Of a stretch of DNA of 64,000 bases, positions 3,478 through 60,450 are shown in pieces. Under the pieces are notes generated by a model. The model had not been told where the DNA came from. It did no database searches and saw nothing but the letters and a program-made list of their open reading frames with translations. Source of the stretch: Candidatus Limnocylindria bacterium (GTDB lineage Bacteria; Patescibacteriota; Saccharimonadia; Saccharimonadales; JAGQNK01); the NCBI GenBank assembly GCA_035489815.1, contig DATHJH010000032.1, forward strand, positions 32,301 to 96,300, read 5' to 3'. The position numbers were made by a program, and so were the translations under genes. Each line of letters opens with the position of its first letter. Positions within the stretch are counted from its first letter, which is position 1.

Positions 3478-3580
3478 GCTGAGTGCTGCCGTGGCCCATC
3501 CTGAGGGGTCAGCAAGCGCCTCGGCGGCCAAAGGCCGTCCGTAAAAGCGCTCCTCAGGATGGGCCACGGCAGCACTCAGC
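3478..3580 (+). repeat. family-1 nested hairpin element, copy A (subtype 1a)
   Basis: Perfect 29-nt arms at 3478-3506 and 3552-3580 enclose the core GGTCAGCAAGCGCCTCGGCGGCCAAAGGCCGTCCGTAAAAGCGCT. Confidence 0.9.
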
Positions 3581-6050: not shown

Positions 6051-6159
6051 CCGGAACGGCTCACCCTTACGAATTCGTCAGGCTAAAGCTAACGCCATGG
6101 GCTGACCGAAGGTCACCCATAAAGTGGCCTAGAGAATTCGTAAGGGTGAGCCGTTCCGG
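6051..6159 (+). repeat. family-1 nested hairpin element, copy B (subtype 1b)
   Basis: Perfect 26-nt arms at 6051-6076 and 6134-6159. Core is GTCAGGCTAAAGCTAACGCCATGGGCTGACCGAAGGTCACCCATAAAGTGGCCTAGA. Confidence 0.9.
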
Positions 6160-10157: not shown

Positions 10158-10263
10158 CCCATCACAAATACCCTCTTATTCCGTCAGGGTCAGCAAGCGC
10201 CTCCGAGGGCCCATGGCCCGAGGTAAAAGCGCCCTAGAGGAATAAGAGGGTATTTGTGATGGG
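10158..10263 (+). repeat. family-1 nested hairpin element, copy C (subtype 1a)
   Basis: Perfect 25-nt arms at 10158-10182 and 10239-10263. Core is GTCAGGGTCAGCAAGCGCCTCCGAGGGCCCATGGCCCGAGGTAAAAGCGCCCTAGA. Confidence 0.9.
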
Positions 10264-16321: not shown

Positions 16322-18883
16322 ATGAAATACACCCTAGTCCCCCATCTCCCATACCTTGACAGGTCTGCCCTCCCAGAAGCAGTGCCAAACAGCCCGGCTG
16401 CCCTGAAACGTAGCTATGGCTACGTTTCAGGCACATCCAATCTGCCTGGCACTGCTTCTGGAAAGGCATCTAGCCGTCAGAGTATGGGAGATGGGGGACT
16501 AGGCAAACAGCAAGTAAAAAAGCGACTCGTGCCCACCATTGCTGCTGTTTTTGTCCTTGGTATCCTACTCCCGGCTGTTCTGCCCTCCCAGAACACAGAT
16601 GCGCTGAGCGGTTCGCAGTTTAATGCCGGACGAATCATCGATGATGCGGTGTTCTACAACAAAAACTCTATGTCCGCCAGCCAGATCCAAAGCTTCCTAA
16701 ACAGTAAGGTCCCGACTTGTGAAACCCACCATGCCAAATCTTCCAGCAGTAACGATTCCGGGCCGCCGTATAAATGCCTCAAGGACTATCGTCAAAATAC
16801 CGCCAACATTGCTCCGGACAGCGGCCTGTGTGGCGGCTACACCGGCAGAAGCAACGAAACAGCCGCCCAGATCATCTACCACGTCGCCCAAAGCTGCGGC
16901 ATAAGCCCTAAGGTCATACTGGTCATGCTCCAAAAAGAGCAAGGGCTGGTAACCGATACATGGCCATGGGACATTCAATACCGAAAGGCCATGGGCGCTT
17001 TCTGCCCGGACTCCGCCCCGTGCGATCCGGCTTATGCTGGATTCTTTTACCAGGTATACTACGGTGCTCATCGGTTCAAGGTCTATGCCGCCAACCCGGG
17101 TAGTTTCAACTACCGGGCCGGCCGCAATAACTCCATCCTCTGGAATCCCAAGACATCCTGCGGAAGGTCAACTGTGTACATCCAGAACCAGGCAACCGCC
17201 AGCCTCTACATTTATACCCCGTACCGCCCCAACCAGGCCGCCCTCAATAACCTGGGCGGCACCGGAGACAGCTGCAGCTCCTACGGCAATCGCAACTTCT
17301 GGGTATTCTATAACCAGTGGTTTGGCCCCACCACCGGCAGCCCCCTGTTCAAATTCAGTAATGACGCAACGGTGTATGTACTCGGCGCAAACAACAACTA
17401 CTACCGTATGGAAAATCGTGAAAAACTGGATATATACGGGTTCGGCGACACCATACATAGCGTCAAGACCGTCAGTACCAGCTATGTCTCCGGCCGGAGC
17501 TTTTCAGGCAACCTGCCGCTTATCGCCCGGTTCCAGGGAGATGAGGTCTACATGATTAGTGGCGGCCGGGCTCATCACTTTACCTCCCGGGCGCTGTTAC
17601 AGACATTTGGCTACGACATTGGCCAGGAAGCCCTGCTGCCGGCCGGCATTAAAGAATGGTACCCGGACGCCGAAGCCATGCAAACCACCGTTCGCAGCGC
17701 TAACGGCCCCGCTGTCTGGTCTGTCGAAGGCGGCAAGAAGCGGCACATCATCAATGGCGAGGCCTACCTTTCCGGCAGCCCCGCGTATGCGTCAAGGCCT
17801 GAGGTCACCTTATGGGAAGCCGTTATGGCGCCGATCGAAAACGGCCCGCCGATTCTGACGGCCAACAAGCTGTTAAAACGGACCGACCAAAACACTTACA
17901 TTTTCTGGGATGGCACCAAACGGCAGGAAATTTCTGCCAGAGTGGCCGCAGAGCTGCATCTGCCCCTCATCTATGCCACCAGAGCCTCCATACTCAACCA
18001 GTTACCCGCCGGGGGCACAGACATAGACAAGTATGTAAAAAACGGCGGCGGCGAGCTGTATGTCCTGGACTCGGGCCAAAAGTTCCTTGTGTCGCCCTCT
18101 GACCTCACCCAAATGGGACTTACCTCATCTTCATTCTCACTCGCCCCGGACGGATTCTTTGACTTTGTCCCCACTACTAAAGCTTTTAAACGGCTATTCA
18201 GAATTGGGAGCGACAGCGGCGTCTTCTTAATCAAAAGCGGGCAGCGCTATCACCTCATGAGCCCGGCCGCTGTTTCAGAAAGCGGCTTTGCACTGTCAGA
18301 CGCCATATCCCTGAACGACACATCAGCAAACCTGTTCCCTAATTCCGGAAAAAAGATTATGGCCAAGGGTACATTGTTCAGGATCGGCTCCAGGGATGAG
18401 GTGTTTGTAGTAAACACCGGCTCGTCCAGCCTGCACATTGTGTCTGCCCCTACCCTGAAGGACTACGGCCTGAAAATTGCCAGTACCTTCAGCCTCAACC
18501 CCACCCAGGCATCCGACTACCCAATGTCCGGAAAGCTCCGGCACATTGTGAAAGACGGCTCAAACAACGTCTGGCAGGTACAGAACGGCGCAGAGAAACG
18601 GCCCGTACCCACGCCCATGCAAGACCCCGGCGGCTATAACGTCATTGTTCCGGAATTAGCCGTTCTGGATACCAGCCTCTTTGGCGGATATGCCACTCAA
18701 TCAGACCTGACCAACCTCATACGCGCAGCGGGTGATGCCCGTGTATACAAGGTCGAAAACGGCAAAAAGCACTGGGTAACCAGTCGGGCCGTTTTTGACA
18801 CCAACGGGTTTTCACTCAGTAACGTCACGAACGTCTCCACAGGGTTCCTGAACAGCCTTGCCAGCGGTCCGAACATACACTAG
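16322..18883 (+). CDS. large exported cell-wall-associated protein: putative murein-hydrolase-like N-domain plus about 9 degenerate ~55-aa repeats
   Basis: 853-aa maximal ORF. A more likely start is the ATG at 16484 (MGDGGLGKQQVKKRL + TM), because codons 4-61 are the hairpin element. It carries the motif AAQIIYHVAQSCGISPKVILVMLQKEQGLV. The C-terminal repeats follow the pattern hYhh..G.+h.h.s...h...Gh. Confidence 0.7.
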   Translation: MKYTLVPHLPYLDRSALPEAVPNSPAALKRSYGYVSGTSNLPGTASGKASSRQSMGDGGLGKQQVKKRLVPTIAAVFVLGILLPAVLPSQNTDALSGSQFNAGRIIDDAVFYNKNSMSASQIQSFLNSKVPTCETHHAKSSSSNDSGPPYKCLKDYRQNTANIAPDSGLCGGYTGRSNETAAQIIYHVAQSCGISPKVILVMLQKEQGLVTDTWPWDIQYRKAMGAFCPDSAPCDPAYAGFFYQVYYGAHRFKVYAANPGSFNYRAGRNNSILWNPKTSCGRSTVYIQNQATASLYIYTPYRPNQAALNNLGGTGDSCSSYGNRNFWVFYNQWFGPTTGSPLFKFSNDATVYVLGANNNYYRMENREKLDIYGFGDTIHSVKTVSTSYVSGRSFSGNLPLIARFQGDEVYMISGGRAHHFTSRALLQTFGYDIGQEALLPAGIKEWYPDAEAMQTTVRSANGPAVWSVEGGKKRHIINGEAYLSGSPAYASRPEVTLWEAVMAPIENGPPILTANKLLKRTDQNTYIFWDGTKRQEISARVAAELHLPLIYATRASILNQLPAGGTDIDKYVKNGGGELYVLDSGQKFLVSPSDLTQMGLTSSSFSLAPDGFFDFVPTTKAFKRLFRIGSDSGVFLIKSGQRYHLMSPAAVSESGFALSDAISLNDTSANLFPNSGKKIMAKGTLFRIGSRDEVFVVNTGSSSLHIVSAPTLKDYGLKIASTFSLNPTQASDYPMSGKLRHIVKDGSNNVWQVQNGAEKRPVPTPMQDPGGYNVIVPELAVLDTSLFGGYATQSDLTNLIRAAGDARVYKVENGKKHWVTSRAVFDTNGFSLSNVTNVSTGFLNSLASGPNIH
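16333..16503. repeat. 171-nt triple-nested perfect hairpin element (E)
   Basis: Outer arms are 22/22 perfect (16333-16354 and 16482-16503). The middle stem is 14/14 (16373-16386 and 16448-16461). The inner stem is 12-13 bp (16403-16414 and 16419-16430) with loop TATG. Confidence 0.9.
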
Positions 18884-18899: not shown

Positions 18900-19006
18900 G
18901 GCCGAGTCAGCTACTTTCGTTCCTCTAGGGCGCTTTATGGGCGATCCTTACGGATCGGCCCATGGCGCTTGCTTACCCGGACGGAACGAAAATAACTGGC
19001 TCGGCC
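18900..19006 (-). repeat. family-1 nested hairpin element, copy F (subtype 1b, core on minus strand)
   Basis: 24-nt arms at 18900-18923 and 18983-19006 with 21 WC pairs. The minus-strand core is GTCCGGGTAAGCAAGCGCCATGGGCCGATCCGTAAGGATCGCCCATAAAGCGCCCTAGA. Confidence 0.9.
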
Positions 19007-21925: not shown

Positions 21926-22095
21926 GCTGTGGAGTAGGATAGCATAAACCTGTGCCACTGATGGCACGTGGATCAGAGCGCACACAGGTAGGCAGCGCCA
22001 TGAGTCAGCCTAGGACTGCTCATAGCGCCAAACCACTGCTGATGGGTCAGTGATAGCCTTTATAGTCCAGGTATAAATATAGTAGAGTACCTGTA

Positions 22096-24974: not shown

Positions 24975-25022
24975 AAACTGTACTTTTATTTTGTCCGGCC
25001 GGATATAAATGGAGTACAGTTT
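24975..25022. promoter_or_regulatory. imperfect 48-bp palindrome (candidate operator) upstream of the PaaX/Cas2-fold gene
   Basis: AAACTGTACT-N-GTCCGGCCGGAT-N-AGTACAGTTT. It shares its ends and its centre with the perfect palindrome at 25545-25598. Confidence 0.6.
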
Positions 25023-25033
25023 CAGAGGACATC

Positions 25034-25549
25034 ATGAAAAGAAGCAGGAGCACCAAAGATTTACCAAACTCAGCCCTGGCCTATGTACTGGAGGCCTTGA
25101 TCCCTTACTCTGATGCGAACGTAAAGCTAGCTTTCAAGCCGCACCTATTCTTTAACGACCTTGAGAACATTGCCCGGCAAAAGCAAAGCCTCAGCTACCG
25201 TCGTCAAACTTTACGGAATGCTTTTTACCACGCCAAGCGTAGTGGATTTATTGAGTTTAGTAAGTCTGGTGGCCCACGCCTTACGCGCAAAGGGGAAGCG
25301 TACTTAAAGCCCTATGAGCCAAGCAAGCTTGGCGACTCCGCACGACTCATGGTTATATTTGATATCCCGGAAGAACAGCGAGCCAAGCGTCGCTACCTAA
25401 GGCTCATACTTAGACAGTTAAAATTCAAAATGGTTCAGCAAAGTGTTTGGATAAGTAAGTACGATTGCAAAACGATTCTTCATGATGAGATCGAAGCGTA
25501 TGAGCTGCAGGCTTATGTTCAAATATACGAGTGCGTTCGATTATTATAA
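25034..25549 (+). CDS. PaaX-like / Cas2-fold domain DNA-binding protein
   Basis: 171 aa. The C-terminal RLMVIFDIPEEQRAKRRYLRLILRQLKFKMVQQSVWISKYD matches the ferredoxin-like Cas2/PaaX-middle-domain pattern. The N-terminal half is wHTH-like. Confidence 0.6.
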   Translation: MKRSRSTKDLPNSALAYVLEALIPYSDANVKLAFKPHLFFNDLENIARQKQSLSYRRQTLRNAFYHAKRSGFIEFSKSGGPRLTRKGEAYLKPYEPSKLGDSARLMVIFDIPEEQRAKRRYLRLILRQLKFKMVQQSVWISKYDCKTILHDEIEAYELQAYVQIYECVRLL

Positions 25550-25598
25550 CTGTACTCTAAAAATGTCCGGCCGGACATTTTTAGAGTACAGTTATAAG
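25545..25598. terminator. perfect 54-bp palindrome; candidate bidirectional intrinsic terminator and/or operator
   Basis: 27/27 perfect arms centred on GTCCGG|CCGGAC, flanked by A5/T5 runs. It contains the stop codon of the ORF at 25034-25549 and lies between convergent genes. Confidence 0.7.
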
Positions 25599-29569: not shown

Positions 29570-30784
29570 CTAAGTAACGGTTACTTGAATCTTGGGGCGG
29601 GTGAGGGTTTGGACGTGGGCGGAGACGCCTTTGATGATGAATTCGTGGATGTTGTCGCGGCGCAGCAACAGATGGGGATTGAGCGGCGAATCATCGGCTA
29701 CACCCAGATTAATGGTATACACACCGTTGGCAAAAATGTTTTGGATTTTGAACCGCGCGGTCATTTCTTTGTCAGCCTCCAACCGGTATTGGCCTGCCCA
29801 TAGTGCGGTGTCAGCCGAAATAAGCATTAGTTTGTCATGATTCTTTACGTTTATGCCAATGTTGACGTGATCTATGGCGATCTTACTTTTGACCGTGACC
29901 TCTATTTCAAAATCCTCGTCTGCTTCAATGGCTCCCTGGGCCTTGCCGCCCTGGATGACGCGCGCTTTGACCAATTCCACGGTCTCGGTGCCGTCGGCTT
30001 CCTCGCCCCGCTGCTGGCTCAGCCGGTCGGCTTCCTCGCGCAGGAACATTTCCTCGTACCGGCCGGCTATTTTGGTGCTGGTACCGATCTCTTTTATCTC
30101 ACCATATTCCAGTAGCAGAGCCCTGTCGCAAAAACGTTCTATCATGGCCATGGCATGGGACACCAGGATGATGGTCCGGTTTTCATTTTTGAGCGAGGCA
30201 AAATAGTCAAAACACTTTTGTTGAAAGGCAGAGTCGCCCACGGCCAGCACTTCGTCCAGCAGCAGTATGTCTGACTTGGCCCGGATGGCGATGGAAAAGG
30301 CCAGGCGCACCTGCATGCCGCTGGAATAGTTCTTCAGCTTTTGGTCCATGAATTTTTCCAGTTCTGCAAACTCTACAATGTCATGGTACATGGCTTCCGT
30401 CTGCTTCCGGCTAAAGCCCAGGAGGGCAGCGTTCAGAAAGACATTGTCCCGGCCGCTTAGTTCCGGGTTAAAGCCCACGCCCAGTTCTATAAAAGGCACC
30501 AGGCTGCCGTATATTTTGATCTTGCCTTTGTCCGGGGTATAGACGCCGGCCATGCACTTCAAAAGGGTGCTTTTGCCGCTGCCGTTGCGGCCGACGATGC
30601 CAAAGAACTCGCCTTTTTTGACTTCAAAGGAAACGTTCTTTAGACTCTGCTGCAGTTCATAGCTTTTGCTGCGGAAACTGCTGAGGAAAACGCCTTTGAG
30701 GGACGACTGTTTTTCATGGGGCAGCTTGAATGCCTTGCTGACGTTTTCTACCCTAATAGCTATGTCTTGGGTGCTGTCCGGCAT
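29570..30784 (-). CDS. polysaccharide/teichoic-acid ABC exporter ATP-binding protein with C-terminal extension (Wzt/TagH-like)
   Basis: 404 aa. Walker A GRNGSGKST, signature YSSGMQVRLAFS, Walker B ILLLDEVLAVGD, plus an extra ~150-aa beta-rich C-domain. Confidence 0.9.
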   Translation of the reverse strand: MPDSTQDIAIRVENVSKAFKLPHEKQSSLKGVFLSSFRSKSYELQQSLKNVSFEVKKGEFFGIVGRNGSGKSTLLKCMAGVYTPDKGKIKIYGSLVPFIELGVGFNPELSGRDNVFLNAALLGFSRKQTEAMYHDIVEFAELEKFMDQKLKNYSSGMQVRLAFSIAIRAKSDILLLDEVLAVGDSAFQQKCFDYFASLKNENRTIILVSHAMAMIERFCDRALLLEYGEIKEIGTSTKIAGRYEEMFLREEADRLSQQRGEEADGTETVELVKARVIQGGKAQGAIEADEDFEIEVTVKSKIAIDHVNIGINVKNHDKLMLISADTALWAGQYRLEADKEMTARFKIQNIFANGVYTINLGVADDSPLNPHLLLRRDNIHEFIIKGVSAHVQTLTRPKIQVTVT

Positions 30785-30786
30785 GC

Positions 30787-31611
30787 TCAGATCTCCTCCG
30801 CAAAATACTTAGAGCGCTTGCGAAAATACGCAGAACTTATGAGCAGAGCGATAACTACCAGGGTAAATGGTATCAGGCGAGCCATTGGGTTATGGAATAC
30901 GTCGCCAGTCTGCAAATTGCTGTCGTGGGTTATGACTGCCCGGGAGTCCTGGATTATTTGCGCCAGGGGGTTAGAGATAATGAGCTTTTGCAGAGGTGAA
31001 GAGTCTATGAGGCTTAGGGGGTAAAGGATGGGTATGGTGTAGAACATAGCTTGCTTGAGGATGTCCCATATATGCTCAATGTCGCGGTAGCGTACATACA
31101 GGGCTGACAGGAAGAAGCCTGTTGATACTGACACTACGACCAGCTCGACCAGCAGGAGCGGGAATATAATGACGGTCAGCCAGGACAACGCAGTATCATG
31201 AGCAAACAACACAAAGATAAAGACTACGACGAGGTTTAAGGACATGTTGATGAATGCCGAGGATATGGCGGCCACGGGGATGAGGTAGCGGGGTATGTTT
31301 ATTTTGCGGATGAGGCTGCCTTTGTCGACAATCGAGGAAAGGGCGTTGGATGTTGCCTCTGTGAAAAAGTTCCATAGTACGATACCCAGCAGTAGTGATA
31401 TGGGGTAGTTGGGTACTCCTCTGCCAATATGCAAGAACCTGGTAAATACCGTGTAGAGGATGGCAAACAACATGAGCGGCTTCAGCAGCGACCACAAATA
31501 GCCCAGGACGGAACCTTGGTACCTAAGTTTGAAGTCTGTTCGGATCATCTCCAGCAGCAGGCTTTTGTAGGTTTTCTGGAAGGCTTTTACTGTTCTTGTG
31601 AGCTTCATCAA
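30787..31611 (-). CDS. ABC-2 type polysaccharide exporter permease (Wzm/TagG-like)
   Basis: 274 aa, 6 TM helices, immediately upstream of the ATPase. Confidence 0.85.
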   Translation of the reverse strand: MMKLTRTVKAFQKTYKSLLLEMIRTDFKLRYQGSVLGYLWSLLKPLMLFAILYTVFTRFLHIGRGVPNYPISLLLGIVLWNFFTEATSNALSSIVDKGSLIRKINIPRYLIPVAAISSAFINMSLNLVVVFIFVLFAHDTALSWLTVIIFPLLLVELVVVSVSTGFFLSALYVRYRDIEHIWDILKQAMFYTIPILYPLSLIDSSPLQKLIISNPLAQIIQDSRAVITHDSNLQTGDVFHNPMARLIPFTLVVIALLISSAYFRKRSKYFAEEI

Positions 31612-31681
31612 GTAGAATAATTATATATGATAGTTCGTCGGGTAGTATACCCGCATTGTCTTATTATCACGAGATGCCTTG

Positions 31682-31782
31682 GCCGGCACCGACCACTCGC
31701 CCCCCTAGGGCGCTTTTACGAATTGCCTAACGGCGATTCGAGGCGCTTGCTGACCCTAGGGGGCCAAGCAGTCGGTGCCGGC
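31682..31782 (-). repeat. family-1 nested hairpin element, copy I (subtype 1a, core on minus strand)
   Basis: 26-nt arms at 31682-31707 and 31757-31782 with 22 WC pairs. The minus-strand core is GGGTCAGCAAGCGCCTCGAATCGCCGTTAGGCAATTCGTAAAAGCGCCC. Confidence 0.9.
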
Positions 31783-31796
31783 TGGCCCGTGGAGTT

Positions 31797-31960
31797 AGAA
31801 CCTGCTCATGATCTCGCTCCTGATGCCAAAACTGATCCATTTCGAGTGGCAATTCGTTCTAGTTTTCCTGCTGTACCCATAGGTACGGCAGGGGGATTAG
31901 GGCGGATTGACGCCGGAATGGGCGGCTTTGGGACAGGATTTGAGATCATGAACAGGTTCT
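31797..31960. repeat. 164-nt nested hairpin element (J)
   Basis: 19-nt arms at 31797-31815 and 31942-31960 with 18/19 paired. An inner 11-bp stem lies at 31867-31877 and 31883-31893. Confidence 0.8.
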
Positions 31961-31976
31961 CAGAAAGGCCCTGCTC

Positions 31977-33587
31977 GTGAAGCCGTTTCACAAAGATCCA
32001 TCCAAAGACATTGAGGCCGCCGAAGAGGCCATGACTGGGAAGGATTGGCCTGCTGCAATTGAACGGTGGGGAAGGATTTTGCAGACTTATAAACGCAAGA
32101 CTCCGGCTGGGGTATATGTCCGGCTGTCTATTGCCTACCGCAGACAGACCAAGTACCCAGAGGCTGAGGAAGTCCTGGCTCATGGCTTGAAGAAACACAC
32201 AGATTATATGCCTTTGTACATTGAGTACGCCGAGGTTGCCACAGAACAGAAGGATTGGGTGGAAGCTGCCCGACGGTGGCAGGTGGTACTGGATACCTTT
32301 CCAGAAACAACCCCTGTAGATGTCTGGATTAAGCTGGTACGGGCCTACCGGTTCCAGAATGACCTGGACCACGCTGAAAAGTTTGTTACCCGGGGCTTAG
32401 ACATCTACACCAATGACGCCGGGCTGTGTACGGAAGCCGCGTATATTGCCGCTGCTCAGGAGGATTGGCCAAAGGCCCTGGCCTCCTGGCAGACCATCAT
32501 AAGCGGGCAAAAGGACCTGGCGCCGGCAGAGGCCTGGGCAGGGCTGGGAAAAGCGCAGCGCAGGACTGGAGATAGCCTGCAGGCCGAAACTACTATCAAA
32601 AAAGGCCTTCAAAAACACCCTGATCACCTGGGCCTCAACCTTGAATATGCAGAACTCGCCAACGATCAACAAGACTGGGCAGAAGCCCTGAAGCGGTGGC
32701 AGGCGGTACTGGACAAGTTTGGCGACTCGCCGTCCATGACTATCTACCTTAGCCAGACTACACGGTTCACTCTAAGTATTCTCAAGAGACTGCAAGATAT
32801 TGCAGCCTATAAAAAGGGCCTTAGCAGATATGCCAGCAAAAAGGGCCGCCGAAAGATTGCTATTGTCACGGCCGTGAGCGCAGGCTACGACAGCCTGAAG
32901 CCGCACGAGGTGATTGACGACAGGTTTGATTACATCGCCTACACAGACGCAAAGCTGGATGACATCGGCCTCTACGATATCCGGCCATTGCCCCAGACCT
33001 GGCCCGACGCCGGGCCGCTCTCCAATAAACCACTGGATAATCCGCGTGCTATTCGGATAATTAAAACCCATCCCCACGTCCTCTTTGACCAGTACGATCT
33101 GGTGGTCTGGCTGGATACCTCCGTTATGATTGTGGGCGATATCTATCCTGCCTTAGAAAAGTTTATGGAGTCCGGCCGGGCCATCGGTGCCGGTGTGCAC
33201 CCAGAGCGCAGCTCTATTTTTGAGGAACTGGAAGCCTGCATAGCTATGAAAAAAGACGATCCGGCGGACCTCAAACGCCAGCTGGCCTACTACAAAAAGA
33301 TCGGGTTCGAGGACACCGGACTGGCGGAGTGCGGGTTCCTGGCCTTTAATCTGCGGGACAAGCGGGACCAGGTAGCCGCTGCTATGGACACCTGGTGGGA
33401 TCAGATTTGCCGCTTTAGCCGGCGGGACCAGCTGAGTTTTCCGTATGCGCTGGCGTCAAACAAAGTGGTGTGGCACCCGCTTACCAAGCCCCCGCAGGAT
33501 ATCCGCCATCACCCGGACTTTGTGATCACCCCGCACCAGTACGAACCGGCCATTCTGGCAGAATTTGAAAGTCTATTACAGAAATAA
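31977..33587 (+). CDS. TPR-repeat protein fused to a glycosyltransferase-like (DUF616-type) C-terminal domain
   Basis: 536 aa, GTG start. The N-terminal half has about 7 TPR-like units (W..A...W). The C-terminal half reads IAIVTAVSAGYDSL...WLDTSVMI...SRRDQLSFPYAL. Confidence 0.6.
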   Translation: MKPFHKDPSKDIEAAEEAMTGKDWPAAIERWGRILQTYKRKTPAGVYVRLSIAYRRQTKYPEAEEVLAHGLKKHTDYMPLYIEYAEVATEQKDWVEAARRWQVVLDTFPETTPVDVWIKLVRAYRFQNDLDHAEKFVTRGLDIYTNDAGLCTEAAYIAAAQEDWPKALASWQTIISGQKDLAPAEAWAGLGKAQRRTGDSLQAETTIKKGLQKHPDHLGLNLEYAELANDQQDWAEALKRWQAVLDKFGDSPSMTIYLSQTTRFTLSILKRLQDIAAYKKGLSRYASKKGRRKIAIVTAVSAGYDSLKPHEVIDDRFDYIAYTDAKLDDIGLYDIRPLPQTWPDAGPLSNKPLDNPRAIRIIKTHPHVLFDQYDLVVWLDTSVMIVGDIYPALEKFMESGRAIGAGVHPERSSIFEELEACIAMKKDDPADLKRQLAYYKKIGFEDTGLAECGFLAFNLRDKRDQVAAAMDTWWDQICRFSRRDQLSFPYALASNKVVWHPLTKPPQDIRHHPDFVITPHQYEPAILAEFESLLQK

Positions 33588-35462: not shown

Positions 35463-37226
35463 ATGTGCGGTATCTTTGGCCACACACAACCCGGCAAGAA
35501 CCCGACCGCCTCACGGCGTGCTTTGAACACTTTAGCCCACCGCGGGCCAGACCAATGGAACGACTGGCAGGACAAGGAAGTGTATGTGGGCCACCGGCGG
35601 CTCAGCATTATCGATCTGTCTGAACATGGGCGGCAGCCTATGTCTGCCCAGGGCGTTGTTATAACGGTGAATGGGGAAATCTATAATTACAAAACCCTCA
35701 AAAAAGAACTGGGGAACAAGTACGCCTACCAAAGTGATTCTGACTCAGAAGTCCTCATCTACGGCTATCTGGAATGGGGCATGGACAAGCTTCTGGAAAA
35801 ATTAGAAGGTATGTATGCTTTTGTGCTGTACGACACCAGGCAGAGGAAACTCTTTTTGGGCCGGGACCGGGCGGGCATCAAACCCTTGTACTATTCGCAT
35901 AAGGGCGGCCAAATAGCCTGGGCCTCAGAGCTCAAAGCCCTTACCAGTTTCCATACCGAGGCAAAGCTGGAGGTTGACTCCACGGCCGTCTACGACTACC
36001 TGACCTACCGGTACATCCCCACCCCAAAAACGCTCTACAAGGACGTATACAAACTGCCGCCGGCGCAGTACCTGGAACTGGACCTGCACACGCACAAGCT
36101 CCAGAAAAAACAGTATTGGACACTCGGGCTTGTCAAAATCAACCCAACCCTGGACGAGGCCGCCGCCAAAGTCAGGGAACTGGTCGACCAAGCCGTCCAG
36201 GAACAGCTGATGAGCGACGTCCCAGTGGGCTTTTTCCTGAGCGGCGGCATGGACTCCAGCACCGTCGTAGGCATAGCCGCCCAGCACAGCAAACAGCTAA
36301 ACACCTACGCCATCGGTTTTGATATAAAAGAGCACGACGAAACCCACTTTGCCGAACTGGTAGCCAAAAAGTTTAAGACCAATCACCGGCGCAAGGTCGT
36401 GTCTGTGGGTGAGGTCAAAAAACTCTTCCCCAAAATCAAAGACTGGTACGACGAGCCTTTTGCTGACACCTCCACCTTCCCGGTTTACATAGTGTCCAAG
36501 CTCACCAAGCCCAGTTCAACAGTGGTGTTGACCGGCGACGGCGGAGACGAAGTCTTTGGCGGCTACAACTGGTACGCCGACTTCAAAAAAAATGCCCCTG
36601 GTTTTATCAAAGAGAACTACCCCGGCTCCCGACTAAAAAGAAAACTCACCCGGTCCCACCAGGCAACCATCACCAACCTGGAGTTCGCCTACTACACCAA
36701 ACTCATGGGCGGCCTGACCCGGGAAGAAAAGGCCGGCTACCGCAAACAATTCGGTATAGCTGACTCCTACGATGACTATTGGTATTTTAGAAAATTCTAC
36801 CGGCCAGAACTGCCCCTCTATACCCGCCTGCAATACCTGGACTTTCACACCTATCTGCATGACGACATCTTAACCAAAGTCGACCGGGCCAGCATGGCCG
36901 TAGCCCTGGAGTGCCGGGTACCACTGCTGTCCACCCCCCTCATCGAGTACCTGTTTTCTCTGCCGGAAAATATTCGCTATCACAACGGTGAGCTTAAGGG
37001 ACTTATGAAATACGCCTTCCACGACCTGCTGCCGGATGAAATCCTAAACCGCAAAAAAAAAGGCTTCAGCATCCCCACCGGCCGCTGGCAGCCAAACCTG
37101 ATGGAGCGGGACACCACCGTACCAGAGTTCATCCTCAAAAAGTTTTTCAATAATACCACGGGTCGGTCCAAAACGGCTGCCCCTTCACAGCACAAAAGGC
37201 TTCAGCATAGCCGGCGTAATTTTTGA
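35463..37226 (+). CDS. asnB: asparagine synthase (glutamine-hydrolysing) family amidotransferase (WbpS-like context)
   Basis: 587 aa. MCGIFG N-terminal nucleophile, PP-loop FLSGGMDSS. The last ~20 codons overlap hairpin element K. Confidence 0.85.
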   Translation: MCGIFGHTQPGKNPTASRRALNTLAHRGPDQWNDWQDKEVYVGHRRLSIIDLSEHGRQPMSAQGVVITVNGEIYNYKTLKKELGNKYAYQSDSDSEVLIYGYLEWGMDKLLEKLEGMYAFVLYDTRQRKLFLGRDRAGIKPLYYSHKGGQIAWASELKALTSFHTEAKLEVDSTAVYDYLTYRYIPTPKTLYKDVYKLPPAQYLELDLHTHKLQKKQYWTLGLVKINPTLDEAAAKVRELVDQAVQEQLMSDVPVGFFLSGGMDSSTVVGIAAQHSKQLNTYAIGFDIKEHDETHFAELVAKKFKTNHRRKVVSVGEVKKLFPKIKDWYDEPFADTSTFPVYIVSKLTKPSSTVVLTGDGGDEVFGGYNWYADFKKNAPGFIKENYPGSRLKRKLTRSHQATITNLEFAYYTKLMGGLTREEKAGYRKQFGIADSYDDYWYFRKFYRPELPLYTRLQYLDFHTYLHDDILTKVDRASMAVALECRVPLLSTPLIEYLFSLPENIRYHNGELKGLMKYAFHDLLPDEILNRKKKGFSIPTGRWQPNLMERDTTVPEFILKKFFNNTTGRSKTAAPSQHKRLQHSRRNF

Positions 37227-37291
37227 CCTCGTGGCCAAAATTACCCGCGCGAAGCGGTCTTCTGGGTGGGAAGGGGCAGCTGTTTTGGACC
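37165..37291. repeat. 127-nt hairpin element (K) straddling the asnB stop codon
   Basis: 22-nt arms at 37165-37186 and 37270-37291. 21/22 are WC pairs and one is G:T. Confidence 0.8.
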
Positions 37292-41720: not shown

Positions 41721-42716
41721 TCAGGCCGCCTTCGGTTCCGGTTGCTGCCCTTGTCCCCAGTAATTTCGAATACCATTGCCAATATCTTGATAAGCAATCT
41801 GCAGGCCACGCTCTGATGTATCGCCAATGGCCCGGGCAACACTCGAAAGAGGTGTCTCAACAACAACCCGCTTAACTTTCCCAGCCTCTTTCACTACCCC
41901 CAGCATATATCCAATATCGCCCGCATAGTTTCCGTTCAGGGCGCCGCGTAGCTCTGTCATACTCGCTTCACTACGGCCCTGGTCCAACCTGCCAACCGAA
42001 AGATGCACTTCAGGACTATATGGTGCCAGGTAGGGCACAGACGCTTCGATATTACTTATGACTTGCGGTCCAATAGTAGACGGATGATGTACCCATCCGG
42101 TGTCCAAGGCGTAGCCATTATACCCTCGAACGATACGCATTTTGTGATCAAATTCCCCCAGAGTAGACGCACCGACTCTGCGGGCTTCTTTGTCGTGCGG
42201 CTGAATCAGCGCTTTGTCCGGTTGGGCAGCCGCAATCTGCTTATTATCAAGTTGGGGGTTGGCGTGGGGGTAAAAAACCGCATCGCGCGTCCCGCTGCAT
42301 GCCAGTTCTTCTTGGGCCTTGCCAATGGCCCTGGCAGAACCCATAACCGTCGGCCCAAACACCACCCTGCCAACACCCGGGGTATTGATAGCCACTCGCG
42401 CAGCCCACGAACCCCTGTTAGACACTTCGCCGGGAACCCGATCCTGTCTTCTTGACCGGGGCGTATGCCGCCAGCCCTGATGCCACGAATTCACCACAAG
42501 CTCTCTGGCGTCGACCGCCCGCTTTATGGCACCTATGCCATGTCCAGGCACCATGTCGAAAATAGGCATCCACTGCACACCGTCAAACCCGGCTGCGGCT
42601 GCGAACTCACCAAGTCGCCCTGGGGTGTAGCGGAAAAGGTTGCCCAAGTTGGTGCGCGGGTCAGTGTCCAGAATGTTCTGGTTCGAAAAGACTACTTCTA
42701 GATTTTGATTCGGCAT
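41721..42716 (-). CDS. hypothetical protein
   Basis: 331-aa soluble ORF with no motif I can name. Confidence 0.5.
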   Translation of the reverse strand: MPNQNLEVVFSNQNILDTDPRTNLGNLFRYTPGRLGEFAAAAGFDGVQWMPIFDMVPGHGIGAIKRAVDARELVVNSWHQGWRHTPRSRRQDRVPGEVSNRGSWAARVAINTPGVGRVVFGPTVMGSARAIGKAQEELACSGTRDAVFYPHANPQLDNKQIAAAQPDKALIQPHDKEARRVGASTLGEFDHKMRIVRGYNGYALDTGWVHHPSTIGPQVISNIEASVPYLAPYSPEVHLSVGRLDQGRSEASMTELRGALNGNYAGDIGYMLGVVKEAGKVKRVVVETPLSSVARAIGDTSERGLQIAYQDIGNGIRNYWGQGQQPEPKAA

Positions 42717-42772: not shown

Positions 42773-42853
42773 TATAGACATCACACTCTGTCCTGCCACC
42801 AGAGTTGCCTGAGGGCAGGCAAGTCGGGACAGGGTCAGGGTGTGATGTCTATA
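42773..42853. repeat. 81-nt nested hairpin element (L)
   Basis: Perfect 14-nt arms at 42773-42786 and 42840-42853. Inner pairings are CTGTCC/GGACAG and CTGCC/GGCAG. Confidence 0.75.
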
Positions 42854-45415: not shown

Positions 45416-46798
45416 ATGCAAGACAGCCTGTGGCAAGCAGTACTGGGGGAGATAGAGCTGACGGTTTCCCGGGGTCATTACGTCACGTGGTTTAAAAATA
45501 CCCGGCTGCTCCGCCATCAGAACGACACGCTCGTCATAGGCGTTCAGAATGTCTTTGTAAAACAACAACTGGAACGCAAGTTCAATCAGCTCATAACCGA
45601 TACTTTAGAAAAAAACGGTGTAAAGCCGGAACACATCGAATACAAGATAGACTCTGGTATGGCTCAATCCCGAAAGGCAGATGATGAACTTTCCGGGACC
45701 ACCGTGCTCAGGAATCCTGAAAAAAGGTCTGTCGTCCAGGCAGCCGGCAAGTCCAGCCGTACCACGCTCACCCACACTTACCGCCAGGGACTGAATACGA
45801 AATATACCTTCGACAGTTTCATAGTTGGCTCCGGCAACGAACTGGCTTATGCTGCCTGCCAGGCTATCGCTCAAAATCCGGGCAGCAAGTATAATCCCCT
45901 CTTTGTCTACGGCGGCGTTGGTATTGGCAAAACACACCTCATTCAGGCCGCGGGCAACGCCGTTATCGCCAGGAATCCTGCTGCTCATGTCGTCTATGTT
46001 TCCACGGAACAGTTTGTGCAGGAGTTTCTGGATGCTATCCGGTACAAGAAAAATACCGATTTTGCCGGCTTTTACCGGAGCGCCGATGTGCTGATTATCG
46101 ACGATATGCAGTTTATCGCCGGTAAGGAAAAGACGCAGGAAGAATTCTTTCACACCTTTAATGCCCTTCACCAGGCCAACAAACAGATCATTATCAGCAG
46201 TGACAAGCCGCCGAAAGACATCCCCACCCTGGAGGAACGGCTGCGCAGCCGGTTTGCCTGGGGCATGAGTATAGATATGCAGATCCCGGACTTTGAGACG
46301 CGCTGTGCTATTGTCCAGACCAAGGCCCACGAGCACGCCACTACCCTGCCCCCGCCAGTGGTAGAGTTCCTGGCTAACCTCATCCAGACCAATATCCGTG
46401 AACTGGAAGGCGCCCTGAACCAACTGCTGGCTTTTTGTGAAATGAGGGGGCTGGAACCCGAACTTACCTTAGCCACCAGCCTGTTGGGCACCAGCAAAAC
46501 CCGGCCCAAGCATTTAAGTGCCAAGCAGATTATTGAACGAACCGCCAAGCACTTCCAGATCCCCCTGGAGGAAATGCTGGGCCCAAAAAGAGACAAAGAC
46601 ATCGTCGTACCCCGCCAGGTGGCTATGTATATGCTGCGGAGCGAACTACACCTGAGCTTCCCAAAAATCGCCCGGGAACTGGGCCGCAAGGACCACACTA
46701 CCGCCATTCATTCCGTCGAAAAAATCACCAGGGAATCCGGCCTGGACCCGGTTATAAAAGCCGCCATCACCGAAATCAAGGAGCGTCTCTATGCTTAG
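45416..46798 (+). CDS. dnaA: chromosomal replication initiator protein DnaA
   Basis: 460 aa. Walker A GGVGIGKTHL, DDMQFIAGKE, C-terminal DNA-binding KDHTTAIHS. Confidence 0.95.
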   Translation: MQDSLWQAVLGEIELTVSRGHYVTWFKNTRLLRHQNDTLVIGVQNVFVKQQLERKFNQLITDTLEKNGVKPEHIEYKIDSGMAQSRKADDELSGTTVLRNPEKRSVVQAAGKSSRTTLTHTYRQGLNTKYTFDSFIVGSGNELAYAACQAIAQNPGSKYNPLFVYGGVGIGKTHLIQAAGNAVIARNPAAHVVYVSTEQFVQEFLDAIRYKKNTDFAGFYRSADVLIIDDMQFIAGKEKTQEEFFHTFNALHQANKQIIISSDKPPKDIPTLEERLRSRFAWGMSIDMQIPDFETRCAIVQTKAHEHATTLPPPVVEFLANLIQTNIRELEGALNQLLAFCEMRGLEPELTLATSLLGTSKTRPKHLSAKQIIERTAKHFQIPLEEMLGPKRDKDIVVPRQVAMYMLRSELHLSFPKIARELGRKDHTTAIHSVEKITRESGLDPVIKAAITEIKERLYA

Positions 46799-47135: not shown

Positions 47136-48227
47136 ATGAAACTGCAAGTCACCCAGGAAAACCTCACCCGAGCCCTAAACAATGTCAGCCGGGTAGCTAA
47201 TACACGCGGCACCCTGCCCATTCTGGCGAACGTCCTGCTCAAGACCGTGGGTAATCGCCTCAGTATCGCTGCCACCAACCTGGATATTGCCATCACTCAT
47301 TACATTGGCTCCAAAGTCGGTGAAGAAGGCTCTATAACCGTCCCTGCCCGGTTGATGCAGGATTTTGTAAGCAGCCTGCCGAGCGGTGTCATAGACCTCA
47401 AGCTGGATGATTACAAGCTCAACATCAGTACTGACAAATACCAGTCGGTTATTAACGGCATTTCGGCCGAGGACTATCCGGTTATGCCAGCTATAGCTGA
47501 CGGCAAAAGCTGGAAAATAGCCGGCAAAACTCTCAAGGCCGGTCTACAGCAGGTGGTTATGGCGGCGTCAAACGATGAAGCCCGACCAGTTCTGACCGGG
47601 GTGTACCTTCACAGTCACGAAGGAGACCTGTATATGGTGGCCACAGACAGTTACCGCCTGGCCGAGAAGAAGCTTATGAAGTCCACTGACGAGGTGCAGC
47701 TTCTCATACCGGCTACCGCCCTCCAGGATTTGCTGCGTATTCTGGGCGAGTATGAGGGTGATGTGAATGTGACGCATGATGACCAGCAGGTGCTGTTCAA
47801 GGTGGGCGACATCGAGTTAGTTACCCGACTTATCGAGGGCAGTTACCCTGATTACCGCAAACTCATTCCGTCCAATTTTGCCTCCAGCGCCAAGCTGAAG
47901 CGGGCTGACCTCACAAACATTACCAAGGTGTCCAGCCTGTTCGCCCGTGAAAGTGCCGGCAGTGTGACTATCCACCTGGACGGTGAAAAATCCCAGGTGA
48001 GCATCCGCTCAGTCGCCTCGCAGTTAGGAGAGAACACATCTGCGGCGACAGCCGAGGTCACAGGCGACGGCATAATAACCCTTAATTCACGGTATATTCT
48101 GGATGCCCTGCATGCTCTCAGCGGCGAGGATGTCACCTTCTCTTTTAACGACAAACTGGAACCAACCGTCCTGGCCGACCCAAAGGCTGGCGACTATCTG
48201 CATGTCATTATGCCGCTCAAGTCGTAA
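47136..48227 (+). CDS. dnaN: DNA polymerase III beta sliding clamp
   Basis: 363 aa with a typical N-terminus (MKLQVTQENLTRAL...LPILANVLL) and three-domain length. Confidence 0.95.
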   Translation: MKLQVTQENLTRALNNVSRVANTRGTLPILANVLLKTVGNRLSIAATNLDIAITHYIGSKVGEEGSITVPARLMQDFVSSLPSGVIDLKLDDYKLNISTDKYQSVINGISAEDYPVMPAIADGKSWKIAGKTLKAGLQQVVMAASNDEARPVLTGVYLHSHEGDLYMVATDSYRLAEKKLMKSTDEVQLLIPATALQDLLRILGEYEGDVNVTHDDQQVLFKVGDIELVTRLIEGSYPDYRKLIPSNFASSAKLKRADLTNITKVSSLFARESAGSVTIHLDGEKSQVSIRSVASQLGENTSAATAEVTGDGIITLNSRYILDALHALSGEDVTFSFNDKLEPTVLADPKAGDYLHVIMPLKS

Positions 48228-48645
48228 ACGGATTTTTGACAGTTAGACCACCATACTTACGTCCATCTTGTAAATCCTCGCTATAGAGAATGGCGCAGTT
48301 GAGATCTATAGCAGCTTGTACAATAAGTGCATCGTAAAAACTGAGAGAGTGCCCAGCGTGAAGGGCGACAGCACTGTTATAAAAGTAAATATCCGGAGTG
48401 TGTTTTAAGAGCCTCCTCATAAAAGTATTGAGTATACTTTCAAGATCAAGATCCAGGGTGGTTTTTTTAAATTTCCCGGTAGCAATATTGCAAAACTCTT
48501 GAACCACCTGTGAACTGATGCAGCCCCGGCCGGACCGCAGTGCATCCCGGATAAGCGTGTTGGCCGTGCTTTGCTTAACCTTATCCCGAGGGTCTAGCGC
48601 ATAAATGAGAATGTTTGTATCTAGAAAATAGCTCTGTTTTGGCAA
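48217..48645 (-). CDS. PIN-domain toxin (VapC-like)
   Basis: 142 aa. YFLDTNILIYAL (Asp1), SFYDALIVQAA, ILYSEDLQ acidic residues. Confidence 0.8.
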   Translation of the reverse strand: MPKQSYFLDTNILIYALDPRDKVKQSTANTLIRDALRSGRGCISSQVVQEFCNIATGKFKKTTLDLDLESILNTFMRRLLKHTPDIYFYNSAVALHAGHSLSFYDALIVQAAIDLNCAILYSEDLQDGRKYGGLTVKNPFTT

Positions 48646-48647
48646 GT

Positions 48648-48866
48648 CTATCTCTCGTTCATTTCTTCTCTGGTAAATTTACGTCCTGGCTGGACGTAGC
48701 TTAGTCGCTTCATAAGTTCATTGTATTCCCTGACGGCTCGTTCTCGATCTGTGTATTGTTTGAGCCACTCACGAAAAAGGTTGTTAAGCGTAGTATTCTG
48801 GGAACGCGCTCGTTCTCTGGCAGCTTCAATAAGCTTTTCATCGGCAGAAAGAGTAATGTTTTTCAT
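48648..48866 (-). CDS. ribbon-helix-helix antitoxin (VapB/CopG-like)
   Basis: 72 aa. MKNITLSADEKLIEAARERA beta-strand-helix pattern. It lies 2 nt upstream of the PIN gene. Confidence 0.7.
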   Translation of the reverse strand: MKNITLSADEKLIEAARERARSQNTTLNNLFREWLKQYTDRERAVREYNELMKRLSYVQPGRKFTREEMNER

Positions 48867-48935
48867 ACGACAATAGTGTACACAGCTATAGTGCTACCGT
48901 CAATAAAGCTTCTCTCTATCGTATACTGGTAACAC

Positions 48936-50011: not shown

Positions 50012-50117
50012 GCCACACATGCTACCTGCTGAATCTCTAGGCCGCTTTATAGGTGGCCTTACGGCCAGCCTATGGCGCTAGCTTTAGCCTGACGATTCAG
50101 CAGGTAGCATGTGTGGC
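50012..50117 (-). repeat. family-1 nested hairpin element, copy M (subtype 1b, core on minus strand)
   Basis: Perfect 24-nt arms at 50012-50035 and 50094-50117. The minus-strand core is GTCAGGCTAAAGCTAGCGCCATAGGCTGGCCGTAAGGCCACCTATAAAGCGGCCTAGA. Confidence 0.9.
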
Positions 50118-60036: not shown

Positions 60037-60450
60037 CTATCCGCGATATGGAGGCTTATGCTTTGGGTCCGTGTCAAGCATCTGATACCTGACTCTCAAA
60101 ACCCTGGTCCTGTCATCCTCCAGCTTGACTGGAGGATCCAGTAGAATAACAAGAATACTGGATTGTCTGGTCAAGCCAGACAATGACGAGGTTTTGAGAG
60201 TCAGGTTCTGATGATACAGCTCTTTGACGGATTTATTCGGATCAAATGCAGGCTTACTGCTTGTGCCCTTGCGGTTGGCAGTGCGGACAAGAAAGCGCTG
60301 GACTGCCTCGCGGCTACCGGGCGCAGTCTTCTTGGCGGACGGAACTTCCGGGGTAATAGTAAAAGCAGGCTTAGACCGATACGTCACCCGGATACGTTCC
60401 CCGGCCCTTGCCCGTGCAACAACCTTGTCCAGATTTGTCACACTATGCAA
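60037..60450 (-). CDS. Phd/YefM-like antitoxin ORF with an in-frame repeat-element insertion in its 3' third
   Basis: 137 aa. The N-terminus (VTNLDKVVARARAGERIRVTYRSKPAFTITP) is antitoxin-like. The codons covering 60087-60206 are the MITE-like element. The ORF ends 5 nt before the PIN gene. Confidence 0.55.
   Translation of the reverse strand: MHSVTNLDKVVARARAGERIRVTYRSKPAFTITPEVPSAKKTAPGSREAVQRFLVRTANRKGTSSKPAFDPNKSVKELYHQNLTLKTSSLSGLTRQSSILVILLDPPVKLEDDRTRVLRVRYQMLDTDPKHKPPYRG
60087..60206. mobile_element. family-2 MITE-like element, copy N
   Basis: 120 bp with perfect 17-bp terminal inverted repeats ACCTGACTCTCAAAACC / GGTTTTGAGAGTCAGGT. It is flanked directly by the 6-bp direct repeat TCTGAT (60081-60086 and 60207-60212). 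It has three internal hairpins. Confidence 0.8.

Follow-up and report, generated by a model that had tools for sequence, protein, structure and literature searches.

Two long hairpins between wzm and a glycosyltransferase gene as candidate dispersed repeats of Candidatus Saccharibacteria

Introduction

Several described genetic systems make use of long hairpins. REPINs, which occur with RAYT transposases in Proteobacteria, are hairpins of ~100 nucleotides (nt) that fold as single strands. ERIC sequences (IRU) and the Correia/NEMIS elements, a group of miniature inverted-repeat transposable elements (MITEs), are imperfect palindromes of 100–170 nt inserted between genes in regions that are transcribed; as folded parts of the mRNA, they change how RNase E or RNase III process it. 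The attC sites (57–141 nt) are recognised as a folded single strand, with structure conserved over sequence and with unpaired bases that set the strand. In bacteria that belong to the candidate phyla radiation (CPR), stem-loop TIGR units have hypervariable palindromic closing stems in which only the nucleotides beside the box motifs are conserved, and the units of the TasR clade carry an extra hairpin between the spacers (PMC12045711; bioRxiv 10.64898/2026.09.09.750476). Here we analyse two long hairpins, A and B, which lie next to each other in a 64-kb stretch of bacterial DNA (contig DATHJH010000032.1; hereafter the window) that is part of a genome of probably near 1 Mb. They are located in the gap between two divergent genes, wzm and a gene for a glycosyltransferase-like protein with tetratricopeptide repeats (TPR-GT).

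We interpret A and B as single copies of two families of dispersed hairpin repeats, F1 and F2, which resemble REP, ERIC and MITE sequences and were inserted in the leader of the TPR-GT gene. To this reading we assign a probability of roughly 55%. Both families have so far been seen in Candidatus Saccharibacteria only and are apparently undescribed; full-text searches for hairpins, MITEs and structured RNAs of Saccharibacteria or the CPR yielded no report of F1 or F2. Shape, length and a small conserved portion define each family; elsewhere in the stem, only pairing is required. The conserved part is an asymmetric core in F1 and, in F2, the apex plus, in most copies, the ends.

Results

Hairpin A and the F1 family

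A and B account for 265 of the 365 nt of the wzm/TPR-GT gap (31612–31976), i.e. 73%, as a preliminary description of this region had stated, and their fold z-scores (−9.4 for A, −14.3 for B and −12.5 for the whole gap) bear out its claim of two long hairpins. Hairpin A (31682–31782) has two arms of 29 nt (31682–31710 and 31754–31782) that are 86% complementary and separated by 43 nt. Its RNA fold, compared with shuffled sequences, reaches −75.7 kcal/mol on the minus strand, to which the above z-score refers, and −67.3 kcal/mol on the plus strand (z −7.1); the stem has three G-U pairs, on the minus strand only. An inverted-repeat scan of the window revealed several hairpins of like geometry with wholly different arms. 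With a covariance model of this F1 family (R1), 217 kb of Saccharibacteria DNA yielded 25 intact copies, of which the window holds six. Hairpin A scores 62 bits (E = 2e-14), with the sense strand of the core on the minus strand.

All F1 copies have in common an asymmetric core, which consists of U[C/A]AGCAAGCGCC, an inner hairpin and then UAAAAGCGCC. It is enclosed by an outer stem, P1, whose sequence is unique to each copy and whose pairing is nearly perfect. The arms are unrelated among the six window copies and the 19 others, and no arm sequence has a match elsewhere in the 440 kb of DNA examined. About half of the copies carry a 5'-GUC / AGA-3' mismatch block, then AGGG/CCCU. A U-G pair that is invariant in 25 of 25 copies stands beside a bulge of 6–7 nt ([C/A]AGCAA) on the 5' side; past this bulge follow a GC helix of 2–4 bp and an asymmetric loop, GCC(U/A) opposite (U)AAA(A). 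The inner hairpin, P3 (8–11 bp), itself covaries. It lies between a 12-nt and an 11-nt core segment, which are direct repeats ending in AAGCGCC, ~30 nt apart. These segments between stem and inner hairpin are nearly invariant in the 25 copies, with only two coordinated variants. Two window copies have core variant b (UAAAGCUARCGCC .. AAAGYGG), and its A-U to G-C exchange supports the short helix.

The pairing of F1 is well above that of the controls: 90.5% of the alignment cells pair, compared with 63% in shuffles and 34–45% in controls with slid partners, and both sides change at 27 of the 31 pairs. The alignment was fitted to the model and thus favours structure, but the arms are gap-free mirror images, so that the pairing result is independent of alignment choices. 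In 19 of the 25 copies the outer stem can be traced to a total length of 96–116 nt (mostly 101–111); of the other six, the trace ends early at a mismatch in three, and three appear to be genuinely shorter. When the outer stem is read on the core sense strand, 243 of 271 cells are Watson-Crick pairs and 14 G-U pairs stand against 2 A-C pairs. Since G-U pairs prevail on it, this strand is taken to be the folding strand, which for hairpin A is the minus strand. The 3' flanks of F1 copies are A-rich, not U-rich.

Hairpin B and the F2 family

Hairpin B is unrelated to A, as had been proposed before, and belongs to a different repeat family. It had also been characterised as a nested hairpin. A long hairpin with 19-nt outer arms (31797–31815 and 31942–31960; 95% complementary) is indeed present, but instead of a nested pair it forms one nearly continuous hairpin of 73 pairs that extends from 31795 to 31963. 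Its fold is much stronger on the plus strand (−106.4 kcal/mol, z −14.3) than on the minus strand (−77.3 kcal/mol, z −9.3), and the former has 13 G-U pairs versus 2 on the latter. BLAST against the loci compared with the window (L002–L031) gave two relatives, L015:10694–10875 and L023:3121–3316. The F2 family consists of hairpins of 163–196 nt with a conserved apex and conserved G-U pairs. In the alignment of hairpin B with its two relatives, ten of the 67 pairs are compensated, most of them midway along the outer stem, and several G-U pairs are identical in all three.

The covariance model of F2 (R2) assigns hairpin B 187 bits on the plus strand, its folding strand, and 75 bits on the minus strand. 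It also matches six further hairpins of 163–175 nt, although its scores alone are little proof of F2 membership, as R2 comes close to a model of long hairpins in general. One of them is in the window (16333–16503; folding strand minus; 53 bits, E = 2e-10); it has the family apex, and nine G-U pairs on the minus strand against two on the plus strand. All nine F2 and F2-like sequences show an invariant apex (UA-N-C, YRUA loop, G-N'-UA), in which one pair covaries through four pair types, and most have the ends (T/A)GAAC .. GTTC(A/T). Furthermore, the F2-like hairpins have 5–13 G-U pairs on one strand and 0–5 on the other. On these grounds we take the nine as one loose superfamily. In a relative, the gap between two divergent genes, Wzy_C and GT4 glycosyltransferase, is taken up by a 166-nt F2-like hairpin (L028:2222–2387), the arms of which carry the called starts of both genes (CAT..ATG within TGAACTCAT..ATGAGTTCA).

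A 14-nt spacer had been described between A and B. It is present, but largely corresponds to a flank motif, CCACGGGC(C), at 31783–31794 on the minus strand, which is shared by three other F1 copies; A and B therefore abut. The motif is thus common to a subset of F1 copies: it is found immediately 5' of the L019 and L022 copies and, in the form CCACTGGC, of the one in L024. According to our estimate, ~0.01 such cases of sharing would be expected by chance.

A and B as insertions

One of the related loci, L031, has a like wzt-wzm/TPR-GT arrangement with a gap of only 86 nt. This gap aligns only with the left ~70 nt of the window gap (31612–31681), including the AT-rich TATATAT and TAGTATAC, and nothing in it corresponds to hairpin A, the spacer or hairpin B; the last nucleotides before the TPR-GT gene (31964–31976) also have no alignment to L031. 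Because the alignment is confined to the left 70 nt, this part represents the ancestral control region. It is AT-rich with −10-like strings (TATAAT/TAGTATAC) and is the probable site of both the wzm and the TPR-GT promoter; a consensus promoter scan of the gap region found no full sigma-70 site. Judged from this comparison, A and B are lineage-specific insertions and not an ancestral regulatory switch. The earlier notion that the elements landed here is thus upheld.

The other hairpins of the window behave similarly. Seven of the eight window hairpins with a syntenic counterpart are missing from relatives. The F1 copy next to recF (50012) is missing in L028, L029 and L030, where the recF gap measures 0–12 nt; the hairpins at 37165 and 42773 are missing from the relatives L031 and L029; and L024 has no F1 copy at the position of window copy 10158. 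Conversely, an F1 copy without counterpart in the window lies at the 3' end of the TPR-GT open reading frame (ORF) of L031. The only gap with an F1 copy in both the window (6051) and L024 is upstream of the glycosyltransferase gene at ~6185. The arms of these two copies match at 4 of 25 positions and the non-coding flanks are also unalignable, whereas the adjoining coding DNA is 80–90% identical. Both an old shared copy with full turnover of the arms and two separate insertions are compatible with this pattern. That the arms are inverted duplications of the target site was rejected, as the empty sites in relatives hold nothing arm-like.

The L031 copy (L031:9636–9713) is located inside the 3' end of the called TPR-GT ORF, which has 571 amino acids (aa) compared with 536 aa in the window. 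Either the hairpin is read into the coding sequence or the gene call is lengthened, as it appears.

The preliminary description had also considered a combined regulatory use of the two hairpins. That the pair is a cis-regulatory device selected to control both the wzm and the TPR-GT operon is highly improbable. The position of the pair between the two genes would suit such a device, and if the promoter is in 31612–31681, the hairpins would lie in the TPR-GT leader, where hairpin B ends 3 nt before a possible ribosome-binding site (AAAGG, read from the sequence) in the short leader stretch (31964–31976, plus strand) preceding the GTG start. However, both hairpins are missing in L031 with the same two genes, the conserved likely promoter region is outside the elements, and both families have unrelated genes as neighbours and occur in every gap type and in either orientation. 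As for the possibility that both promoters lie outside the elements and leave them untranscribed, the conserved control region is indeed outside, but the elements precede the TPR-GT start and are probably transcribed.

Two ORFs that overlap the hairpins, 31627–31980 on the plus strand and 31806–32372 on the minus strand, had been regarded as spurious. This is most likely correct: both exist, but neither has a Pfam match, and the public gene calls for the identical contig place no gene in the gap. ORF 31627–31980 runs without interruption across both hairpins and ends in a TGA that overlaps the TPR-GT GTG start (GTGA). Translational coupling of this ORF to TPR-GT, which may occur, would fit a cis-regulatory role, but an open frame through the 282-nt insert arises by chance in 3% of shuffles for a given frame and in 9% for any frame. 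This makes it weak evidence, and that the frame stayed open is probably a coincidence.

Copies, spacing and orientation

The covariance model does not support the nine family-1 copies implied by the earlier label of hairpin A as copy I; it finds six intact copies and a decayed one. Apart from A, the intact copies of the window are located at 3478–3580 (plus strand; R1 70 bits) in a divergent gap, with perfect 29-nt arms; at 6051–6159 (plus; 76.5 bits), with core variant b in the form UAAAGCUAACGCC..AAAGUGG; at 10158–10263 (plus; 75 bits) in a convergent gap; at 18900–19006 (minus; 80.6 bits), antisense to both neighbour genes; and at 50012–50117 (minus; 77 bits), downstream of recF and again with core variant b. 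The decayed copy, a core with degraded outer stem, is found at 21987–22029 (plus; 21 bits, E = 0.01, model positions 17–62). The window copies are separated by stretches of 2.5–19 kb that contain one to many genes; their density is about one per 10 kb.

When 185,579 species genomes were searched with a strict core pattern, real copies turned up in metagenome-assembled genomes (MAGs) of Saccharibacteria only, and the other matches had no hairpin. A metagenome scan added 13 F1 loci with 11 different copies. Nine viral contigs match a loose core pattern, but none of them contains a real F1 copy, and a phage-borne F1 was rejected for this reason. In L007, two F1 copies in the same orientation (167–244 and 1212–1288) flank a single gene for a secreted or membrane protein of 293 aa. 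Their arms are alike in the outer CTGACC and in the inner part; a block of 8–9 bp differs between them, and the difference is compensated on both arms.

The abutting of A and B had suggested a clustering of such elements. Yet when the 12 hairpins of the window are placed at random in its 32–44 intergenic gaps, at least one gap receives two of them in 81–98% of the placements; two hairpins in one gap are thus expected by chance, which also speaks against a selected cis-regulatory pair. A and B are the only abutting pair among the 34 elements examined in the window and in L002–L031. One element could have inserted at the edge of the other, and a single case shows no preference. A link to surface-polysaccharide genes could not be substantiated either. 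Because a polysaccharide cluster fills much of the window left of dnaA, proximity to such genes is uninformative, and copies are also found beside recF, jag and unknown genes. Taken together, F1 and F2-like copies populate divergent, convergent and tandem gaps.

Where both flanking genes run in one direction, F1 and F2-like elements have their folding strand antisense to these genes 14 times and sense 5 times (two-sided binomial P ~0.06). This count covers the above 34 elements, with window copy 6051 reclassified by the public gene calls. The antisense excess, if it holds, is unexplained; the sense form could be harmful inside operons, or the elements could be used from the other strand. A bias of the replication strand was rejected, since relative to dnaA the window copies are distributed over both templates (3 versus 5).

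Folded strand and DNA sites

Alternatively, the elements could act as double-stranded or cruciform DNA, i.e. as binding sites of a nucleoid or recombination protein or as attC-like recombination sites. We regard this as very unlikely. The near-perfect palindromes of the F1 stems with few wobbles, the two direct repeats of the core and the L007 arrangement, with one gene between two like-oriented copies, would be in line with DNA sites. The wobble pairs point the other way: in F1 they outnumber A-C pairs 14 to 2 and include the invariant G-U pair, and in F2 there are 13 of them on one strand, conserved among relatives. This G-U asymmetry in both families argues for a folded single strand, either RNA or single-stranded DNA.

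A folded single strand, a conserved structure with mostly free sequence and a similar length link the elements to attC sites. There, however, the stem base (R and L boxes) is conserved and the apex is variable, and F1 shows the reverse. No R- or L-box-like stem base is recognisable in F1, and the F2 ends (GGTTCT/GGTTCA) misfit GTTRRRY, so that neither family was assigned to attC. Moreover, attC sites stand in arrays of cassettes next to an integrase. The window shows no such array, and the scan of its ORFs (~50 of ~57) brought up no integrase.

Comparison with TIGR units and protein-bound RNAs

A role of the F1 copies as genes or units of a structured RNA that is bound by a protein, similar to one stem-loop TIGR guide unit or to a box C/D-like RNA of the CPR, is unlikely. 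In such an RNA the variable stem would close the unit, and a dimeric protein would hold the two direct-repeat segments that flank the inner hairpin. F1 indeed comes from the same group of organisms as the stem-loop TIGR units and has a similar layout, with a palindromic stem that is specific to each unit and conserved only next to the core, and with two short segments on either side of a covarying inner hairpin. The tight length distribution, the invariant G-U pair and the mostly antisense position between genes of the same direction would also agree with this idea.

Several observations do not. The positions that would serve as spacers are conserved among F1 copies, which means that F1 has no variable guide. 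The published TIGR rule (box C CNA, 8–10 nt, box D YG, twice, stem-flanked) gave no unit on either strand of the window in a script that allowed loops of 3–45 nt and required stems of at least 10 pairs; F1 shows no box C/D pattern. Its copies are dispersed, about one per 10 kb, and not arrayed beside an effector gene. Neither a Nop domain nor a Tas-like protein was found among the window proteins scanned. Upstream −10-like motifs are no commoner in the sense than in the antisense direction (7 copies versus 4), and an own promoter for F1 was rejected on this basis. We therefore see in F1 and TIGR a resemblance in design, not membership, and rejected the assignment of F1 to TIGR. A 331-aa ORF (41721–42716) was weighed as a possible Tas gene and rejected: sequence searches of Pfam and PDB gave no match, and its sequence does not resemble a coiled-coil RNA binder.

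Quite unlikely, too, is a new class of protein-bound RNA of Saccharibacteria that is akin in design to stem-loop TIGR or box C/D RNAs and acts in trans or marks local transcripts. Here the two constant segments and the inner hairpin would be presented to a dimeric protein by a closing duplex with a fixed length but a free sequence, and the copies would not be simply selfish.

Comparison with other known elements

No known RNA family accounts for the hairpins. With gathering thresholds, Rfam 15 has no match in the whole window, and with E values up to 10 the region 31600–32000 is hit by generic microRNA-precursor models only, at 16–33 bits compared with cut-offs of 76–100. A known phage or plasmid element was rejected since blastn gave no match. 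Likewise, the arms are not spacer-like copies: two arm 20-mers had no viral match, and the search of the 440 kb mentioned above gave no arm match elsewhere. The terminator scan reported no site at A or B; together with the missing U tract and the location of seven elements in divergent gaps, this led us to reject an intrinsic terminator.

Like REP sequences and REPINs, the F1 and F2 elements are short, intergenic and present in many copies and both orientations, and they are gained and lost between relatives. REP arms, however, are conserved and recognised (GTAG-type 5' end), whereas each F1 copy has unique arms and a conserved apex; F1 thus falls outside the REP/REPIN group as defined by shared arms. 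No RAYT/Y1_Tnp or other transposase domain was detected in the scanned ORFs of the window, which covers 64 kb of the ~1-Mb genome. ERIC and Correia elements, with their similar length and their position in intergenic regions that are transcribed, come closest to F2, a family that is conserved along most of its length and has recognisable ends, (T/A)GAAC..GTTC. ERIC and Correia elements differ in that their copies are alike throughout and in that Correia elements have defined inverted ends and a TA duplication. In the F2-like copies, only ends and apex are kept and the middles diverge with compensating changes; no parent insertion sequence was found. As regards general MITE features, there is no consistent duplication, F1 has no conserved ends and most F2-like copies share theirs.

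Genomic setting

The window includes dnaA, dnaN, recF and a gene for a VirB4-type ATPase of the CD1110 family, and surface-polysaccharide genes make up a large part of it left of dnaA. DnaA (45416–46798) has a 100% identical counterpart in an NCBI third-party-annotated MAG labelled Candidatus Limnocylindria; its other relatives are 77–91% identical, and all other named ones are from Candidatus Saccharibacteria. In addition, four syntenic Saccharibacteria contigs align with the window at 65–86% nucleotide identity. From these sequence comparisons we assign the window to a chromosome of Candidatus Saccharibacteria (CPR), and the Limnocylindria label is probably a binning or naming error. A cyanobacterial origin was rejected on account of the DnaA placement and of HIP1 sites, of which the window has none.

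The genes next to the gap were previously named as divergent wzm and TPR-glycosyltransferase genes, and their Pfam domains agree. On the minus strand, wzm (30787–31608; ABC2_membrane, 1.6e-17) encodes an ABC-2 permease and is the first gene of wzm-wzt, followed by wzt (29570–30784; Wzt). The wzm ORF as listed covers 30787–31611; since the public gene call gives 273 aa, the start is probably the ATG at 31608. The TPR-GT gene (31977–33587, plus strand) has TPR and TOD1/MUCI70 glycosyltransferase-like Pfam domains, and its N-terminus aligns with the L031 orthologue starting at the second residue.

Further structured or mobile-looking segments were noticed in the window. Two more long hairpins, 37165–37291 (127 nt) and 60087–60206 (120 nt), have no relatives in the DNA examined; the former overlaps the 3' end of an asparagine synthase gene. 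Two related palindromes (AACTGTAC..CCGGCCGG..GTACAGTT; 24975–25022 and 25544–25597) flank a gene (25034–25549) for a 171-aa protein with a PaaX central (Cas2-like) domain, and L031 has one palindrome (1779–1807) and no PaaX-domain gene. It looks as if the gene was inserted at a palindromic site or lost by recombination between palindromes, and the palindromes may be the operators of this regulator. The dnaN-recF gap of ~700 nt (48228–48935) is filled by a PIN-domain toxin gene (48217–48645, minus strand) and a small upstream ORF, probably an inserted toxin-antitoxin pair beside the replication genes; in three relatives this gap is only ~10–118 nt long. Finally, the above 331-aa ORF lies beside an 81-nt hairpin (42773–42853), and the two make up ~1.2 kb compared with 38 nt in L029.

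Discussion

The preferred reading of A and B as inserted copies of dispersed repeats suggests the following scenario. F1 and F2 would be non-autonomous elements that are quickly gained and lost. They may propagate, or be maintained, via a folded single strand that is recognised by its structure together with the small conserved part, and selection, intrastrand template-switch correction or the two together could preserve the pairing of their stems. In the wzm/TPR-GT gap, A and B would have been inserted side by side and back to back between the conserved 70 nt that probably bear the promoters and the TPR-GT start. Provided that the TPR-GT promoter resides in the conserved part, the leader would have grown from ~10–20 nt to ~310 nt, with A in antisense and B in sense orientation. 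Such a leader would contain two stable hairpins, predicted at −67 and −106 kcal/mol on the plus strand, and could alter processing or stability of the mRNA, for example via RNase III. This would be a side effect of insertion and not the action of a regulator built for the wzm and TPR-GT operons.

A number of points weigh against this reading. Among the window ORFs scanned, none encodes a transposase, a RAYT-like protein or another candidate enzyme, and in ~275 kb of Saccharibacteria DNA, a limited sample, there is no autonomous F2 partner with matching ends 400–3500 nt apart. A clear target-site duplication is lacking as well, with one possible 7-bp case in the flanks of the L015 F1 copy. Whole arms are not shared by any two F1 copies, which sets them apart from a MITE or REPIN population with active copying, and the tight length and conserved core of F1 look like functional constraint, not pure selfishness. 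Moreover, the decision between insertion and deletion at the wzm/TPR-GT gap depends on one syntenic relative, and both hairpin transcription and promoter positions are inferences.

The genomes of Saccharibacteria are very small, and their non-coding DNA is little known. F1 and F2 elements are present at about one per 5–10 kb and turn over between related genomes, which would mean that even these reduced genomes have a dynamic layer of structured repeats. Such repeats reshape leaders and gene ends, and one L031 copy even appears to lengthen an ORF. The models R1 and R2 can be used to annotate the elements and to mask spurious ORFs in CPR genomes. F1 is the more unusual of the two families, in that a free stem sequence is combined with a narrow length range and a small core that is kept across genomes. 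Because of this combination, we suggest that F1 is recognised by its shape or by a bound protein.

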